A stretch of DNA of 64,000 nucleotides from Fimbriimonadia bacterium (GCA_041483895.1 JBGPGO010000005.1:128001-192000), one strand, 5' to 3'. Shown: positions 20,301 to 54,378, numbered from the stretch's first letter. Numbers and translations are program-made. The notes: generated from the letters alone by a model not told the origin.

Positions 20301-20870
20301 ATGGGAGAGACCGAATCACCGCGCCGGCGGTCCAAATGCTGCGTTTGGGTTTTCCTTACGCCGTTCATATTGATCGGCGTCGGCCTGATCTTCCTATACT
20401 TTTACGCCGGCTTCCCGCCGAAGCAGGTCTGGCTGTACCTGTTCAACCCGAAGCGGGATCTGCATGTCGGGAGCTGCCTCGACAACTTGCGCGAAATGCA
20501 AAAGGCTCTTTCCGCATACGTTGTGAGTAATGACCGGTATCCTCCTGCGGATCGGTGGATGGACGAAGTGATCCAGTACAACTCCCCGGATGACGTGACC
20601 CGCAAAGAGAACTGGAAGCGATTCCGGTGCCCCACCTCCACCGGCGAGGACGAATACGGCTATGCGATGAACGCCGAGCTTTCCGGCGCGTTGCGGCCGC
20701 TGGAAAAGGACAAAGCGGAGTGGGCTCGCGCGGAGAAGACCCCCTTCATCTTCGATTCTTCGGACACATCCCGCAATGCTCACGGGTCCCTGTCGCTGTT
20801 GCCGAAGCCAGGCCGGCACGACGGTAAGAATAACATGCTGTATGCCGATGGACACGCAGCGTCTGAGTAG
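20301..20870 (+). CDS. H-X9-DG C-terminal domain protein with N-terminal TM anchor
   Basis: CLDNLREM, FRCP, YGYAMN, RH-DGKNNMLYA-DGH. Confidence 0.8.
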   Translation: MGETESPRRRSKCCVWVFLTPFILIGVGLIFLYFYAGFPPKQVWLYLFNPKRDLHVGSCLDNLREMQKALSAYVVSNDRYPPADRWMDEVIQYNSPDDVTRKENWKRFRCPTSTGEDEYGYAMNAELSGALRPLEKDKAEWARAEKTPFIFDSSDTSRNAHGSLSLLPKPGRHDGKNNMLYADGHAASE

Positions 20871-22371
20871 CGATCTGGCTGCGATTGTCGGCGACGAGGG
20901 TGTGATCTCTCGCGCTGACCAGCTTGTAATGTACGATTGCGACGCGTATACAATCGAGAAGGCGCTTCCCACCGTCGTCGTGCTGCCCACCTCTACCGAC
21001 CACGTATCCGCCATCTGTCGTCTGGCACATCGTGCTGGGCTGCCGGTGATTCCACGGGGCGCCGGGACCGGGCTTTCCGGCGGCGCGTTGGCGGTCGAAG
21101 GCGGGATTATCATCTCTTTGACCCGCATGAACCGCATTTTGGAGATTGATATCCCGAACCGTTTCGTCCGCGCCCAGACGGGGGTGGTCAACGCCAGCAT
21201 TACGAAGGCGGTGAGATCCACAAGCCCTCCCCTTTTTTCCAGCGACTCCGGCAACAACCCGACGATGTCCAAACTCTCTGAGCCGGAAAAAGGGGGAGGG
21301 TTGGGTGGGGGTTCTTCGGATTTCTTCTTCGCCCCGGACCCCTCTTCGCAAGGCGCATGTACCATCGGCGGCAACATTGCCGAAAACTCCGGAGGGCCGC
21401 ACACGCTGCGCTACGGTGTGACAGCCAACCACGTCACGGGACTGACATTGGTTCTCCCCGATGGTACGGTGGAGGAACTGGGCGGGCCGGAGAGGGAGCC
21501 GTTCGGCTACGACCTGGTCGGCATCGTGGTCGGCAGCGAGGGCACGTTTGGGATCGTGACCGAGGCGACCTGCCGAATCTTGCGAAAGCCGGAGGCGGTG
21601 GTTACACTGCTGGCCTCTTTCCCTTCCGTGGAATCGGCGACGCAGGCCGTGACCGCTGTGATTGCCGAGGGATTGCAACCCGCCGCGCTAGAGATGATGG
21701 ACCGTCCCGTGCTGGAGGCCGTCGAGATGGCATTTGGGTACGGTCTGGCGCGCGGAGCGGAGGCGGCGCTCATCGTCGAGTTCGAAGGCTGCGCGCCATT
21801 TGTCCAAGAGGCCTCTCAGCAGGGCGATGCCATCTGTCGAGCGGAGGGGGCCTTCGCGGTCCTGTCCGCGACGGAGGACCTGGAACGGGCGAAGTTGTGG
21901 GCGGCGCGGAAGAAGGCGATCGGGGCGTTGGGTCACATCACGCCGAGCGTGGTGACCCACGACGGCGTAATCCCCCGGTCCAAACTGCCTTCGGTCCTGG
22001 CGCAGTGCGCCGATATCGCGCGTCGGCATGGGCTGCGAAATGCCAACGTTTTTCATGCGGGCGATGGGAATCTGCATCCGGTGCTGATGTTCGACGACAC
22101 CGATCCCGAACAGGTGCGAGCAGTGGTGGCGGCGGGGGAGGAGATTCTGAATACCTGCCTCGCCGCGGGGGGAAGCCTGACGGGCGAACACGGCATCGGT
22201 ATCGAGAAAGCAACGATGTTGGACCGGATGTTCGATGCGGACACGATTGACTGCATGCGCCGCCTGAAGACTGTATTCAATCCGGACGGGCGCTGCAATC
22301 CGGGCAAGATATTCCCCGATTCAAAGCATTGCTATGAAATGAAGCCTCGGCGGGGTCCGATCGGGGTTTGA
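20848..22371 (+). CDS. glcD: FAD-linked oxidase, glycolate oxidase subunit GlcD-like, with in-frame repeat insertion
   Basis: RGAGTGLSGG, APDPSSQ, GSEGTFG, HAGDGNLHP, GEHGIG, NPGK. Confidence 0.88.
   Translation: MDTQRLSSDLAAIVGDEGVISRADQLVMYDCDAYTIEKALPTVVVLPTSTDHVSAICRLAHRAGLPVIPRGAGTGLSGGALAVEGGIIISLTRMNRILEIDIPNRFVRAQTGVVNASITKAVRSTSPPLFSSDSGNNPTMSKLSEPEKGGGLGGGSSDFFFAPDPSSQGACTIGGNIAENSGGPHTLRYGVTANHVTGLTLVLPDGTVEELGGPEREPFGYDLVGIVVGSEGTFGIVTEATCRILRKPEAVVTLLASFPSVESATQAVTAVIAEGLQPAALEMMDRPVLEAVEMAFGYGLARGAEAALIVEFEGCAPFVQEASQQGDAICRAEGAFAVLSATEDLERAKLWAARKKAIGALGHITPSVVTHDGVIPRSKLPSVLAQCADIARRHGLRNANVFHAGDGNLHPVLMFDDTDPEQVRAVVAAGEEILNTCLAAGGSLTGEHGIGIEKATMLDRMFDADTIDCMRRLKTVFNPDGRCNPGKIFPDSKHCYEMKPRRGPIGV
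21221..21314 (-). repeat. REP-like palindromic element inside glcD
   Basis: ccctccccttttttccagc (21225-21243) pairs with gccggaaaaagggggaggg (21282-21300), followed by ttgggtggggg. Confidence 0.8.
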
Positions 22372-37137: not shown

Positions 37138-39047
37138 GTTTCGACTGGTATTGGCGTCGGCTTCGGGCGATGGGCGCGGGAGAAATTGCGACTCGCGTTC
37201 GCCGGAAGGTGCGGGACAAATACTTCCCCGCCCGGTATCACAAAATGACGGCGGAGCAGGCGTTCCATCACTTTTTTCCCTCGGACCCGGTCGTCCCTCT
37301 AGTGCCAGACGGTCTGTTCGAACTACTGCTCGCTAGCCCCCACCGCAACCCTCCCCCGCAAGCGGGGGAGGGAGTCCTTCCGACGGATGCGACCGGTCTC
37401 CTGACCGAGTCGCAAGTTGATCTTCGGTCTCCCGACCGCATGGGTACGGCCGAGCTGCTTGGGATCACCCTGTTCGGAACCCGTGTCACGCTCGACGATC
37501 CGCCGAACTGGCGCAAGAACTATATCACCGGACAGGAGTGGCCGGACGCCCCATCGCATGACATCGACTACCACAGCATCGATATCGCGGGCGGGGTGAA
37601 ATATGTGTGGGAGCCCAGCCGCCATCAAGTGCTGACCGCGATGGCGTATCGCTACTACCGGACAAGCGATGAAGAGCTGAAGCAAATGCATGTCCGTTGG
37701 CTGGAGGACTGGATCGCCAAGAACCCGGTGGACCACGGGATTCACTGGACCAGCGCATTGGAGATGGCGGTGCGGATCATCGTCTGGACGTGGAGTATCG
37801 CGCTGATCGATGCGAAGAGCGGCTATCCGAAAGAAACGCTGCGGCGCGCGCTGGGATCGATGGCGCAGCAGGCCGCGCATATCGAAGAAAATCTTTCGTT
37901 CGGCTCGTCGGCCAACAACCATCTGATCGGGGAGTCCTGCGCGCTCACATTCTTCGGCGCGGCCTGGCCCCAATGCAAGATGGCGGGAAAATGGAAACGG
38001 ACCGGATTGGCGATTGCCACGCGGGAATGCTTGCGACAGATCTATCCGGATGGAGTGCCGGCGGAGCAGGCATTTGGATATCTGCCGTTCGTGTGGGAGT
38101 TCTATCTGCACCTCGCCCTCGCTGGAATTGCGCTGCCGCCCAACGTGGTCGAGCGTCTTGGGACCAGCATTCGCTTCATCGATCAGGTTGCCGATTCGTC
38201 AGGATATGTTCCGCAGGTCGGCGACGAGGATGATGGGTCGGTGGTGGCCTATTACGGCACGGGCTGGCCGCGATATGAGACGGTTGCGCACGGGATGCGG
38301 GCCGCTCTCGACACACCGCTTTTGCCTGGAGGTAAGGCCGCGGGGGTCATGGAATTTCCCGACGGCGGATACACGGTTTTGCGAGCATCCGATCCGGAGA
38401 TGGTAGCGGTGTTCGATCACGGCCCGCTGGGTCTCGGCTCTCTCGCCGCGCATGGCCATGCGGACGCGCTATCGATCACGCTATCCGTGGATGGCCAGCC
38501 TGTCCTCGTCGATCCAGGCGTGTATGCGTATCACGAGGACCCTGCATGGCGCGACTATTTCCGCTCCACGCCCGCGCACAACACGGTGACGATCAACGAC
38601 ATGGATCAGGCGCAGATGTTGGGGCCATTTCTGTGGGGCGCGCGCTCGTCCGTGACAAAACTGGCCGATGCCTGGCGAGTCAATCTTCGGGACGAAAATA
38701 AGATTTATCACGACCGGCAGGTGTCGCTGGACGGCCATCGGCTGACGGTATCGGATCGGATCGAGGGGGAATACAGATCGGCGAAGGCGGCATGGCACTT
38801 CCATCCATCCGTTACGGTCGAGCAGGATGATACCGGCCTCATCCTTTCCTGGGACGGCCGCGCGCGATTAAAAATGACGTTCGATCCGAAACCGTTTACG
38901 ATGGAGATCATCCACGGCGAACCATCCCGCAGATATCCAGGTCCCGGTTGGTATTCGCCCTCTTTTGGCCGATTGATCCCAACAACAACCGTTCAAACCC
39001 CCATCGAGGGCTCGCTTTCCACACGGTGCGTACCGCTGAACAACTAG
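37134..39047 (+). CDS. Heparinase II/III-family (alginate lyase-like) protein
   Basis: WEPSRH, ANNHLIGE, HGHADALS, VDPGVYAY, RSTPAHNT. Confidence 0.88.
   Translation: MSFDWYWRRLRAMGAGEIATRVRRKVRDKYFPARYHKMTAEQAFHHFFPSDPVVPLVPDGLFELLLASPHRNPPPQAGEGVLPTDATGLLTESQVDLRSPDRMGTAELLGITLFGTRVTLDDPPNWRKNYITGQEWPDAPSHDIDYHSIDIAGGVKYVWEPSRHQVLTAMAYRYYRTSDEELKQMHVRWLEDWIAKNPVDHGIHWTSALEMAVRIIVWTWSIALIDAKSGYPKETLRRALGSMAQQAAHIEENLSFGSSANNHLIGESCALTFFGAAWPQCKMAGKWKRTGLAIATRECLRQIYPDGVPAEQAFGYLPFVWEFYLHLALAGIALPPNVVERLGTSIRFIDQVADSSGYVPQVGDEDDGSVVAYYGTGWPRYETVAHGMRAALDTPLLPGGKAAGVMEFPDGGYTVLRASDPEMVAVFDHGPLGLGSLAAHGHADALSITLSVDGQPVLVDPGVYAYHEDPAWRDYFRSTPAHNTVTINDMDQAQMLGPFLWGARSSVTKLADAWRVNLRDENKIYHDRQVSLDGHRLTVSDRIEGEYRSAKAAWHFHPSVTVEQDDTGLILSWDGRARLKMTFDPKPFTMEIIHGEPSRRYPGPGWYSPSFGRLIPTTTVQTPIEGSLSTRCVPLNN
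37337..37438 (+). repeat. Mosaic of palindromic repeats inside the heparinase-like gene
   Basis: ccccaccgcaa + ccctcccccgc-aa-gcgggggaggg (37349-37372); cggtctcctgaccg (37394) and cggtctcccgaccg (37425). Confidence 0.7.
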
Positions 39048-50023: not shown

Positions 50024-51430
50024 ATGAAATCATTCGCTTTTTGCACCGCCGTGTTCCTGCCAATATGTGTGTTCTCCCAACAGCAATGGCATCACCAGTT
50101 GCTGCAAAGGGGTTTTAATAAGGTCTCCCAGGATAATGACACCGCTCACGTGAACGGTGCCGGACAGGCGTTCTACTTCGTGGGGTTTCACGGCAGCGTC
50201 AATCAGGATGTGTACAGAAATACCGAGAATATGAGCGCATGGCTTGGACCGGAGCGGGTCGCATATAGCATTGGGATTAACGAGAAAGGCCAGGTCGCGT
50301 ACGGCGGCAGCACCGGACCGGGGTTCACGATCTACACCGATCATACGGATTGGAGCAGCTCCGTACTCAACCCGAACACCACATACAATTTCAACGGCTA
50401 CGGAATTGATGAATTCGGCAGACCATTGTGGAAGGCCACAGAAACAGGCGCCCGCGCGGGCATCGGCCACCTGTTCTTGGCATCCCAACCGGTATCCGAT
50501 TCCCTCCTCACCGACCCTGTCAGGGTATCCTCCCAATATGTCAACGCGAAAGGCGACGTGGCTTGGGACGCGACGGCGAATGAGACCAACGGGGTGCAAC
50601 AAGTGTTTCTTAACCAAACATTCTACTCCGCAAGCATCGTCGGCGCGAACGTTCCCGCCGGGGTGGGTGGGATCAGCGACAACGGCGATGTTTTCTGGAC
50701 GGCAAACTACAACGGCTTCCGCCACTTGTTCGTCAACGACCTGGACTATACAAATTTCATGTTCGGGGCGGGCGCGACCGATCATAGGGTGTTCGGACGG
50801 GGCATGGATGAGCAAGGAGACATTCTTTGGTACACCGGCGGCGTGACAAACGGGCCAGAATACGGCCTATTTGTGAACAATCGGAATCTCTCCTACGAAG
50901 TATTCGGGACTCAGACGCTCCAGCAGCGCGAAGCATTGCAGATCAGCGGCAATGGTCACGCATACTGGGACGCAAAACTGCCTGACTGGTCCCACGTCCA
51001 TCTCTTCGTAGACACAAGAGATGTCTCCTTAGAGGCCCTTGGCCCGGACGTCATTCCGGACGCATACCGCGCCGAGGCTGACGACTTCGGCCGATTGATG
51101 TGGACCGTGCGCGATCCGTTCTTGGGGAGCAAGAACCGAGTCTACGTGGACAGCTTTGCCCTATCCGCAGACGCGCTGGGACTGGACGCGGCTAATTACG
51201 ACTCCCGCGGAATTCGGATGGGCCCGAACGGAGACGTGGTCTGGATCGCTTCCGATCCCACCGGCAAAGATAGCCGCCTGTATCTCTCCTCCCCAGTGCC
51301 GGAACCGTCCATGGCGGCCCTGCTTGCGGCGTTCTGTTACCCCATCATGCGGCGAGGTTGTCGGGCCGCAAGCAATGCCGGACCCAAGAACTACCGATCC
51401 CGCCGATCGAATCGATCCCGATCCGAGTAA
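50024..51430 (+). CDS. PEP-CTERM protein with ~43-aa repeats
   Basis: Signal peptide; repeats LFVxxxDxS..LG..GDVxW; VPEPSMAALLAAFCYPIMRR. Confidence 0.85.
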   Translation: MKSFAFCTAVFLPICVFSQQQWHHQLLQRGFNKVSQDNDTAHVNGAGQAFYFVGFHGSVNQDVYRNTENMSAWLGPERVAYSIGINEKGQVAYGGSTGPGFTIYTDHTDWSSSVLNPNTTYNFNGYGIDEFGRPLWKATETGARAGIGHLFLASQPVSDSLLTDPVRVSSQYVNAKGDVAWDATANETNGVQQVFLNQTFYSASIVGANVPAGVGGISDNGDVFWTANYNGFRHLFVNDLDYTNFMFGAGATDHRVFGRGMDEQGDILWYTGGVTNGPEYGLFVNNRNLSYEVFGTQTLQQREALQISGNGHAYWDAKLPDWSHVHLFVDTRDVSLEALGPDVIPDAYRAEADDFGRLMWTVRDPFLGSKNRVYVDSFALSADALGLDAANYDSRGIRMGPNGDVVWIASDPTGKDSRLYLSSPVPEPSMAALLAAFCYPIMRRGCRAASNAGPKNYRSRRSNRSRSE

Positions 51431-51791: not shown

Positions 51792-51912
51792 GTAACGCTG
51801 CCTTCCAGCCGGCAGAGCAGCTTCATTCGTAACGCTGCCTTCCAAGCGGCACCAGTCCGAAACGATAATGCCGGCTGGAAGCCAGCGTTACGAATAAAGA
51901 GGCAGCGTTACG
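51792..51912. repeat. REP-like cluster (two direct, one inverted, one partial copy)
   Basis: gtaacgctgccttccagccggca (51792), gtaacgctgccttccaagcggca (51829), tgccggctggaagccagcgttac (51869), ggcagcgttacg (51901). Confidence 0.88.
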
Positions 51913-51939
51913 GGTTGACACGACCGGCTACAATTGGGC

Positions 51940-54378
51940 ATGCCGACGATTGTCCCCGATCCGGAAATCACCACCGAAGTATATCGCGCGATGGGCCTGT
52001 CCGACGCCGAATACCAACTGATCTTGGACAAAGTCGGCCGGCCGCTCACCTACACGGAGCTCGGCATGTTCGCCGTGATGTGGAGCGAGCACTGCGGCTA
52101 CAAATGCTCCAAGAACGTGCTGAAGCTGTTCAAGCGCTACGCCGAGGCGGTGGACGGCGCGGGCCTGGAGAACGCCGGGATTGTGGATATCGGCGACGGA
52201 CTGGGAATTGTGATGAAGATGGAAAGTCACAACCACCCCAGCGCGGTGGAGCCACACAACGGCGCGGCGACCGGCGTGGGCGGAATTCTGCGAGACATAT
52301 TCACGATGGGCGCGCGGCCGATTGCCAGCCTCAACTCTTTGCGATTTGGGCCGATTACGCTGGATTCTTGCCGGCAGGATGCCAGCGTTACGACAGCGGA
52401 TTTTGGCCGGCAGGATGCCGGCGTTACGACACCCGGGGATGTCGAGCGGAATCGGTATCTGTTCGAGCATGTGGTCGCGGGGATCGGCGGGTATGGCAAC
52501 TGCGTGGGCGTGCCGACTGTGGGCGGCGAGGTGGTGTTCCATCCACGCTACAGCGGCCCGCTGGTAAACGCGATGGCGGTGGGGATACTGCGGCTGGATT
52601 CGGTGGCCTCCGCCCGCGCGGAAGGGATTGGCAATCCGGTCATCTACGTCGGGTCGTCCACAGGGCGGGACGGCATCCACGGCGCGACATTTGCAAGCGA
52701 CACATTGGAAGAAGACAGCGCGGCCAGCCGGCCCAACGTGCAGATCGGCGATCCGTTTGCGGAAAAGCTGCTGATCGAGGCCACCCTGGAGGCGCTGGCA
52801 TCCGGCGATGTGGTGGCGATTCAAGACATGGGCGCGGCCGGGCTGACCTGCTCCACGTGCGAAATGTCGGCCAAGGGCGGAGTGGGGATGGAGATCGAGC
52901 TACGGCGCGTACCATTGCGCGAGCAGGACATGAGCGCGTACGAAATCATGCTGTCGGAAAGCCAGGAGCGGATGCTGCTAGTCGCGCGCGCGGGGCGGGA
53001 AGAGGCCGTCCGCGCGATCTTCCATAAGTGGGAGTTGAACGCGGAAGTGATCGGTCAAGTGATCGCCGACAACCACGTTCGGATCAAAGACAACGGACGA
53101 ATTGTGGCGGACTTGGAGGCGAAGCAGCTTGCGGACGAATGCCCGGCCTATGACCTACCCGCCGAAACGCCGGCCTATTCGCAGAAGGCGATTGCCTTTG
53201 ATGCTTCTAAGGTTCCGGAACCGGACGATTATGGCAAGGCACTGCTGCAACTGCTGTCTACCCCATCGATTGCGTCGAAACGATGGGTGTATGAGCAGTA
53301 TGACGTGTCTGTGCAGACGCAGACCGCCATCGGACCGGGCGCCGACGCTTCGGTTCTGGCGCCACGCGGAACGCGAAAAGGTATCGCGCTGGCGGTGGAT
53401 GGCAACGGGCGATACTGCTATTTTGATCCTCACGAGGGTGGGCGGCTAGCGGTGGCGGAGGCGGCGCGAAACGTGGCCTGCACCGGCGCGATGCCGCGTG
53501 CGATTACCGACTGTCTCAACTTCGGCGACCCAAACGATCCGCATGTGTATTGGCAGTTCAAGAACGCGGTGAAAGGGATTGCGGAGGCGGCGGACGCGCT
53601 CTGCACGCCTGTGATCAGCGGCAACGTCAGCTTCTACAATGAATCCCCTGGAGGGCGATGCTCCGTCATCGCCGGGGCGGTCGGCGATGACGGAGCATCG
53701 CCCTCCATCTTGCCGACGCCGACGATCGGCATGTTGGGCGTTTTGGAAGATGCTTCGCATCGGATCGGCTCCGCATTTGTGGGAGAGCGGGGTTTTATCT
53801 ATCTGCTGTGGGCGGATGTGGGAAATGTGCGCCACGAAGGGCTCGGCGCGAGCGAATATTTGGCGATCTGTCATGGCATCGAGGATGGTCTCCCGGCGCA
53901 TGCGCAGTTGGACAAGGAGGCCGCCGTGCATCGCTTTCTGGTGCGGGCGGCCGCGGAGGGTTGGATCGAGAGCGCGCACGATTGCTCGGACGGCGGTCTG
54001 GCGGTGGCGATCGCGGAATGCTGCATCGGCGGCCGGGCCGGGGCTCATGTGTCCCTGGAGGGCGACGCTCCGTCGTCGCCTGATTGGTTGCACAAGGAAC
54101 TGGAATCGGCGGCGAAGACACGCAAACCATTTACCTGGAGTCGATCGACGGCAGCGCTTCTGTTCGGCGAGTTCTCCCCTCGCATCATTCTCGGCACCAC
54201 TGCGCCGCTCGATTCCGAAGTCGCAAAAGACTTCGGCCTGCATCTGCGCTGCATTGGGGGCTACGATCGGCAAATCCAAGACCTGACCATAACAAACCAC
54301 CAGCAAGTGGTATCGGTGCGCATGCACGATGCGATCAATGCCTACGAGAAAGCAATCCCCAATATCATGGAGCATTAA
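51940..54378 (+). CDS. purL: Phosphoribosylformylglycinamidine synthase subunit PurL (small type), with in-frame repeat insertions
   Basis: MWSEHC, ESHNHPS, GRDGIHGA, DMGAAGL, LSESQERM, GNVSFYNE, HDCSDGG. Confidence 0.97.
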   Translation: MPTIVPDPEITTEVYRAMGLSDAEYQLILDKVGRPLTYTELGMFAVMWSEHCGYKCSKNVLKLFKRYAEAVDGAGLENAGIVDIGDGLGIVMKMESHNHPSAVEPHNGAATGVGGILRDIFTMGARPIASLNSLRFGPITLDSCRQDASVTTADFGRQDAGVTTPGDVERNRYLFEHVVAGIGGYGNCVGVPTVGGEVVFHPRYSGPLVNAMAVGILRLDSVASARAEGIGNPVIYVGSSTGRDGIHGATFASDTLEEDSAASRPNVQIGDPFAEKLLIEATLEALASGDVVAIQDMGAAGLTCSTCEMSAKGGVGMEIELRRVPLREQDMSAYEIMLSESQERMLLVARAGREEAVRAIFHKWELNAEVIGQVIADNHVRIKDNGRIVADLEAKQLADECPAYDLPAETPAYSQKAIAFDASKVPEPDDYGKALLQLLSTPSIASKRWVYEQYDVSVQTQTAIGPGADASVLAPRGTRKGIALAVDGNGRYCYFDPHEGGRLAVAEAARNVACTGAMPRAITDCLNFGDPNDPHVYWQFKNAVKGIAEAADALCTPVISGNVSFYNESPGGRCSVIAGAVGDDGASPSILPTPTIGMLGVLEDASHRIGSAFVGERGFIYLLWADVGNVRHEGLGASEYLAICHGIEDGLPAHAQLDKEAAVHRFLVRAAAEGWIESAHDCSDGGLAVAIAECCIGGRAGAHVSLEGDAPSSPDWLHKELESAAKTRKPFTWSRSTAALLFGEFSPRIILGTTAPLDSEVAKDFGLHLRCIGGYDRQIQDLTITNHQQVVSVRMHDAINAYEKAIPNIMEH
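52362..52433 (+). repeat. Two REP copies at 36-bp period, in frame inside purL
   Basis: gccggcaggatgcc(a/g)gcgttacgaca at 52370 and 52406. Confidence 0.88.
53649..53707. repeat. Perfect 26-bp inverted repeat in frame inside purL
   Basis: tggagggcgatgctccgtcatcgccg-N7-cggcgatgacggagcatcgccctcca. Confidence 0.9.
54053..54080 (+). repeat. Single copy of the same repeat unit inside purL
   Basis: ccctggagggcgacgctccgtcgtcgcc; 26/28 identical to 53646-53673. Confidence 0.8.

Follow-up and report, generated by a model that had tools for sequence, protein, structure and literature searches.

The purL locus and its repeat units

The window analysed here, a stretch of 64,000 nucleotides, corresponds to G000:C5:128001-192000, where G000 is the genome under study, a 95% complete assembly in 43 contigs. 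It carries a purL gene whose frame contains, and whose upstream region is occupied by, short hairpin repeats of two families, A and B.

51792..51814, plus strand: family A unit (GTAA + hairpin), intergenic cluster
51829..51851, plus strand: family A unit, left arm of an inverted pair
51869..51891, minus strand: family A unit, right arm of the inverted pair
51900..51912, minus strand: half family A unit (tag and first stem arm)
51929..51934, plus strand: TACAAT, possible -10 box of a putative leaderless purL transcript, 5 nt before the ATG
51940..54378, plus strand: purL, small-type FGAM synthase subunit, 812 aa, intact frame
52354..52376, plus strand: degenerate forward family A unit, site 1, with a palindromic octamer, TGCCGGCA, common to the next unit
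52369..52392, minus strand: family A unit, in frame, residues 144-151 (CRQDASVT), site 1
52405..52428, minus strand: second family A unit, 36-bp tandem duplication, residues 156-163 (GRQDAGVT), site 1
53649..53707, unstranded: family B inverted dimer, perfect 26-bp arms, 7-nt spacer, residues 570-590, site 2
54056..54081, plus strand: single family B unit, residues 706-714 (LEGDAPSSP), site 3, in a family-specific variable loop

The purL product exceeds the cut-offs of both family models for small-type PurL (NF002290, 899.6 bits against a cut-off of 648; TIGR01736, 823.5 against 525.75) and matches 3viu with E 8.6e-154. The gene is the sole strong purL match in the assembly, and its homologs carry the source names Fimbriimonadaceae/Armatimonadota. 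A PurQ-motif gene lies on contig C13 beside a PurS-like neighbour, the latter judged by eye.

The initial annotation had described an upstream A cluster at 51792-51912, two internal A units at a 36-bp period, and a perfect 26-bp B inverted repeat at 53649-53707 with a further single unit, all keeping the reading frame. We recovered the cluster with the same coordinates and sequences, as three full units and a half unit, found both internal A units on the minus strand with 5 differences in 36, and found the B dimer and the single B unit, the latter at 54056-54081; the ORF at 51940-54378 is open throughout, all repeat units included. That annotation had missed the degenerate A unit at 52354-52376, which matches at 18/23 letters (10/15 independent letters, p about 0.001) and overlaps the first internal A unit. 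Units of both families are stem-loops of 24-26 nt, within the 20-40 bp expected of short REP-type hairpins, and their 7-bp stems contain co-varying pairs (T-A/G-C, C-G/A-T/G-C and C-G/T-A in B; G-C/C-G and T-A/A-T in A). The fold of the site 2 dimer has z = -9.7, and one A unit folds no better than its shuffles (z -0.8).

Upstream of purL, a sigma-70 consensus scan found no full promoter. Across the genome, -10-like hexamers peak 6-7 nt ahead of the ATG, a pattern that suggests leaderless transcripts, and given the position of TACAAT the upstream A cluster would overlap the -35 region of purL. Elsewhere in the window, a secreted-type protein is encoded at 50024-51430, with a C-terminal VPEPS followed by a hydrophobic stretch, a tail that we take to resemble PEP-CTERM; two further genes, at 37170-39047 and 20842-22371 (both plus strand), have internal copies of other hairpin repeat groups.

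Part of the stretch occurs in 24 DNA runs and, among the runs listed, in no RNA run; of the DNA runs we examined seven, which may belong to one campaign and include one that is possibly the source sample. A contig from run X7 (52263-52700) bridges site 1 and the Asn codon deletion described below with 0 differences, as do contigs of X1, X2 and X4 for site 2 and a contig of X2 for site 3. Misassembly had been named initially as an outcome that would undo the case, and these independent contigs match all three sites letter for letter.

Repeat sites compared with homologs, and the predicted protein

PurL was compared in alignments with three sets that may overlap: 29 same-order relatives (the best 29 loci of 40 genomes), 80 metagenome loci and 119 database homologs. 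The unpublished genome G036 contributes one row, and no conclusion depends solely on it. The site 1 loop is 34 aa long versus 15 aa in the closest relatives, which are 71% identical, giving a net gain of 57 bp, or 19 aa. This loop is already variable, at 7-20 aa among 108 measured relatives, and one homolog, P0059, has 43 aa there with an unrelated 27-aa insert; the initial statement that PurL normally has only a few residues between SLRFG and RYLF is therefore incorrect. At site 2 the loop is 23 aa in the query versus 7 aa in 116/119 database homologs (3 not measurable), and it is 7 or 8 aa in 99/109 loci (10 not measurable); the insert is shared by none of the database homologs (119, 3 not measurable). 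Since the 59-bp dimer nets only 48 bp, or 16 aa, about 11 bp would have been displaced at this site.

The site 3 region, at 54 aa, is 5-14 aa shorter than its 59-68 aa counterpart in P0002, P0003 and P0005, three of the five homologs nearest to the query (the other two not measurable), and it is also shorter than in the relatives G001 and G002. We rejected site 3 as an added loop, as its B unit lies in a family-specific loop with no gain in length. The homolog alignment proposed initially thus confirms sites 1 and 2 as net insertions, and the claim that the repeats add peptide loops holds for these (+19 and +16 aa) but fails at site 3, where there is no net added length. No target-site duplication of the kind made by MITEs or IS elements is visible at sites 1-2, as judged against relatives only about 70% identical. 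No empty allele of the species was seen, so that timing and target site are read from those relatives; an X2 contig that skips site 2 with 19 other letters, at 85% likeness, most likely derives from another organism's purL.

The Asn of YSGNP has been lost in frame as one codon, at window positions 52555-52560 (PurL residues 205-207), which contigs of four runs confirm. All 114 measured homologs (114/114) have it as a fourth residue, so that of 115 sequences the query alone lacks it. Under the internal two-fold repeat of the enzyme, the loop that has lost this residue pairs with the site 2 loop, which may be chance.

Conserved columns are as intact in the query as in its homologs: it departs at 2/206 and 4/273 of them, and as many or more departures occur in 45/96 and 35/119 homologs. 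The small-PurL motifs SEHC, K-E-SHNH, RD, ESQER and GNVS, which we take to be conserved active-site motifs of PurL, are present, and their columns are invariant in the alignment. Site 2 lies 7-8 residues past the invariant G561-N562-V563-S564 strand, which presumably binds ATP, Mg and substrate, in a loop of nearly fixed length; this proximity, together with the deleted Asn, makes impaired activity possible. An AlphaFold2 model built from a 97-row alignment (pTM 0.92, mean pLDDT 87.9) renders sites 1 and 2 as coil, with pLDDT <50 at residues 147-152 and 569-585, and site 3 as a more confident loop preceding a helix. Residues with no aligned homologs are expected to score low whatever their true structure, so what the model demonstrates is limited to a core able to fold without the inserts. 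A pair count on one of the alignments, in which the insert is present in a single row, was uninformative.

Families A and B across the genome and their relation to RAYTs

Profile scans found 142 copies of family A and 59 of family B, versus 0 and 0 in a shuffled genome, in line with the initial expectation that the units have other genomic copies. The two families are unrelated, A consisting of GTAA and a hairpin and B of TGGAG and a hairpin. Among A copies the tag is GTAA in at least 115/142, GGAG in 10 and GTAG in 3, and 58/59 B copies have TGGAG. Neither family has the 5' GTAG or GT[AG]G that defines the GTAG-tagged REP superfamily, and because of this difference in tag we do not file them there; their consensus ends also lack the terminal CGTC of CGTC-tagged REPs and small RPEs. 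Exact A and B patterns are absent from 40 relatives of the same order, and the exact A pattern has 1 match in 400 genomes of the phylum plus 1 in a viral contig. A few searches of open-access text on this group found no description of GTAA- or TGGAG-tagged repeats.

Copies occur as singles, inverted dimers and clusters, the layout of BIMEs and REPINs, and inverted pairs are found at 10 loci of A and 12 of B. Like REPs, the copies are numerous, dispersed and mostly outside genes (81 loci contain the 142 A copies, and 31 the 59 B copies). Against 3390 genes called with a hexamer model made for the present analysis, 11/142 A copies (8%) are internal, in 5 genes, and 23/59 B copies (39%) are internal, in 11 genes, while 69% of the genome is gene-internal; counted by locus, which is fairer because copies cluster, the figures are 5/81 and 13/31. 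Depletion of A and B from gene interiors is expected from the purging of harmful insertions. TAA is present in one frame of the A consensus, and 34/142 A copies provide a called gene with its TAA stop codon; the B consensus is free of stop codons in all frames, a difference that may be part of the reason for the larger internal share of B.

Together the two families lie within 15 host genes, all matching Pfam families, which include purL, purA, carB and hisF as well as glycosidases, a peptidase, a helicase and a lipid kinase. Five of the 14 other hosts were compared with relatives, and all five have net in-frame inserts (CarB +44, AlaS +28, PurA +17 and HisF +29 aa; Ppx at two sites). In carB, alaS and hisF (L133, L138 and L140), the B inserts finish with 15-bp tandem copies of the hairpin foot (GAACGGAGCCCTCCA-like), one or two in number, an enlargement that preserves the frame. 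AlaS also has an extra insert of about 53 aa versus G001 and G002, at residues 385-442, in DNA with no obvious repeat. An automated census from 22 repeat seeds, one of which was dropped as a protein repeat, pointed to about 67 gene calls with internal DNA repeats, of which 12-21 have at least two groups depending on how composites are merged. Scans of 20 of these 67 calls identified, among others, a DNA polymerase III alpha-type gene, ffh, trmD, era, mutY, queG and mnmG. purL is thus not special in this genome, being one among about 67 repeat-bearing gene calls. The DNA polymerase III alpha-type ORF (G000:C8:64748-69256, 1502 aa) has about six repeat groups inside and is denser in them than purL.

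RAYT profile searches of the assembly gave 6 hits with PF01797, and 8 strong and 2 weak hits with NF047646; we discarded the two weak matches, which are not intact RAYTs. The eight RAYT genes are located at G000:C5:229655 and on contigs C6, C27, C21, C20, C3 and C12, with five types of flanking repeat, and some of these repeats have non-GTAG ends, such as CCCTTCACAG and CCCTCAACAG. None of the eight is flanked by A or B (0/8); each is flanked by other repeat types.

Other genomes contain B dimers in at least 111 stretches, most of them from Verrucomicrobiota and Planctomycetota, and the dimers are near-identical across several phyla. At 14/80 of such loci the dimer lies in a long ORF, and 4/14 scanned frames have a Pfam match, none of them PurL. 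Outside the genome we examined 52 RAYT loci, comprising L181 and 51 of the 57 matches in ten genomes selected because they contain B. B units lie beside the RAYT in 4/52, on both sides at L181, L337 and L350 and on one side at L344, and the L350 unit is letter-identical to purL site 2. We dropped a fifth candidate, L186, where the B dimer is 1.1 kb away and other hairpins are adjacent. The four B-flanked RAYTs are NF047646 genes, 50-54% identical among themselves, and among the 47 rows of sufficient length for alignment they fall in one clade of nine (99/94), to which the eight of this genome do not belong; the best match between the eight and the B-flanked RAYTs is 23-35% identity. At L337 (G423), the frame of the B-flanked RAYT itself has a B dimer (1927-2046), in open frame upstream of the matched region.

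Family B is therefore an orphan in this 95%-complete assembly. The proposal that the repeats are REP-like and mobile gains from the RAYTs that B flanks in other genomes, but the assembly offers no A- or B-flanked RAYT in its favour. For family A no flanked RAYT was found among the eight here or the 52 loci elsewhere, in genomes chosen for B, and A may be linked to a RAYT by analogy only.

Interpretation and relation to known systems

We propose, with a probability of about 85%, that two families of hairpin repeats lie in frame in purL, that they are likely non-autonomous REP-type elements moved by RAYT (HUH/Y1) enzymes, and that they have likely been kept because they preserve the frame in loops predicted to be flexible. 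The purL inserts are likely tolerated insertions of selfish DNA. RAYT-type enzymes would cut single-stranded hairpins and place units or inverted dimers genome-wide, selection would remove most copies within genes and leave those that keep the frame and sit in loops, and local duplication would later enlarge some inserts. Because the degenerate forward A unit overlaps the first internal unit, site 1 may be a collapsed inverted A dimer that then underwent the 36-bp duplication, making it the older and diverged insert. Site 2, with its perfect arms, would be a younger B dimer that displaced about 11 bp, and at site 3 a B unit would have taken the place of a segment of the loop already there. RAYT-driven arrival in this genome is conjectural, and the PurL enzyme probably still works.

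Spread by gene conversion or replication slippage at hairpins, with no transposase involved, is an unlikely alternative that draws on the lack of a cognate RAYT in the assembly and on clear local duplications, the 36-bp repeat at site 1 and the 15-bp B-foot repeats in carB, alaS and hisF. Slippage could account for enlargement, though not for arrival at a new site, and B flanks RAYTs of one clade in four genomes, with near-identical dimers in several phyla, while the eight RAYTs of this genome are each flanked by other repeat types. It is very unlikely that the inserts and the one-residue deletion have impaired PurL under relaxed selection in a cell that relies on purine salvage. Site 2 does break a loop that is 7 aa in 116/119 homologs and adjoins an invariant strand, the query alone lacks the YSGNP Asn, and purA too has an insert; against this, the frame has stayed open through five repeat units and a diverged duplication, the conserved columns are as intact as in homologs, and the single-copy purL is accompanied in the genome by a PurQ-motif gene with a PurS-like neighbour.

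Selection for the inserts, through a 26-bp mRNA hairpin or new loops that tune PurL level, folding or complex assembly, appears highly improbable to us. The perfect arms of site 2 (z = -9.7) would fit it, but recent insertion alone gives perfect arms, and no homolog has the site 2 insert. The presence of purL, purA, carB and hisF among the 15 hosts, and of inserts in the PurL of Opitutus terrae too, is a pattern seen post hoc; the remaining hosts are unrelated, and both families avoid gene interiors. That the repeats were misassembled into purL is scarcely conceivable: the assembly is rich in repeats and short-read contigs break near A units, but contigs with 0 differences bridge sites 1 (X7), 2 (X1, X2, X4) and 3 (X2), and chimeric joins would not preserve the frame in 15 genes.

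A far broader reading would see a live genome-wide experiment in loop creation (about ten families, eight RAYTs and about 2% of genes), GTAA as an undescribed RAYT specificity, purL as a cross-phylum sink that takes up more repeats than its length would predict, and the 16-aa loop beside the nucleotide-binding strand as co-opted for tuning of the enzyme; we regard this as decidedly unlikely. Under the preferred reading of tolerated REP-type insertion, the locus provides a clean case, from a little-studied lineage, of repeat DNA translated inside housekeeping enzymes, and it gives small PurL natural insertion-tolerant sites, one of them in a loop of otherwise fixed length. The TGGAG hairpins and the RAYTs L181, L337, L344 and L350 form a matched set for the guide-sequence model of cleavage-site choice on a non-GTAG tag. 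The finding leaves the understanding of REPs and of PurL unchanged.

Compared with the small PurL of Thermus (3viu) and Thermotoga (2hs0/3d54), the protein has the same domains and conserved motifs, but its loops are longer at 141-164 and 570-590, it has a family-specific loop near 705-735, and it has one residue fewer at YSG-P. At about 150 bp, RPE-1 far exceeds the A and B units in length. In-frame palindromic repeats of Rickettsia, the RPEs, lie in probably functional genes (as cited in PMC3733652), and small RPEs, according to the same source, are CGTC-tagged with no dedicated transposase.

In their 5' tetranucleotide, 7-bp stem-loop, high copy number and inverted dimers, A and B resemble the REP/BIME/REPIN elements associated with TnpA(REP), or RAYT, as outlined in PMC8266576 and PMC6006769, and the latter treats in-frame REP insertions within genes as harmless if in loops. 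The REPs covered there have GTAG or GTGG tags, with a conserved GTAG needed for cleavage, whereas GTAG is the main tag of neither A nor B. Unlike REP-RAYT systems, moreover, A and B have no cognate RAYT in this assembly, and for A none was found anywhere.

The closest precedent is Opitutus terrae, for which Di Nocera 2013 (PMC3733652, also for what follows) describes intragenic GTAG REPs, as singles and dimers, in frame. Its phosphoribosylformylglycinamidine synthase, Oter_3711, has two GTAG-17 dimers of 16 aa each (supplementary file 3), and the genes for HrpA (Oter_0009) and uvrA (Oter_3168) each have two REP families. In-frame REP dimers in this PurL are thus already in print, and the phenomenon is known for this enzyme. 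There the protein is a large PurL (1438 aa) with both inserts from one family, whereas here a small PurL has received two families. The tags are GTAA and GGAG here versus GTAG in O. terrae. The O. terrae tag often gives the stop codon TAG, just as 34/142 A copies supply TAA here. The purL repeats are a new example of a known phenomenon, intragenic REP-like repeats, with non-canonical tags.
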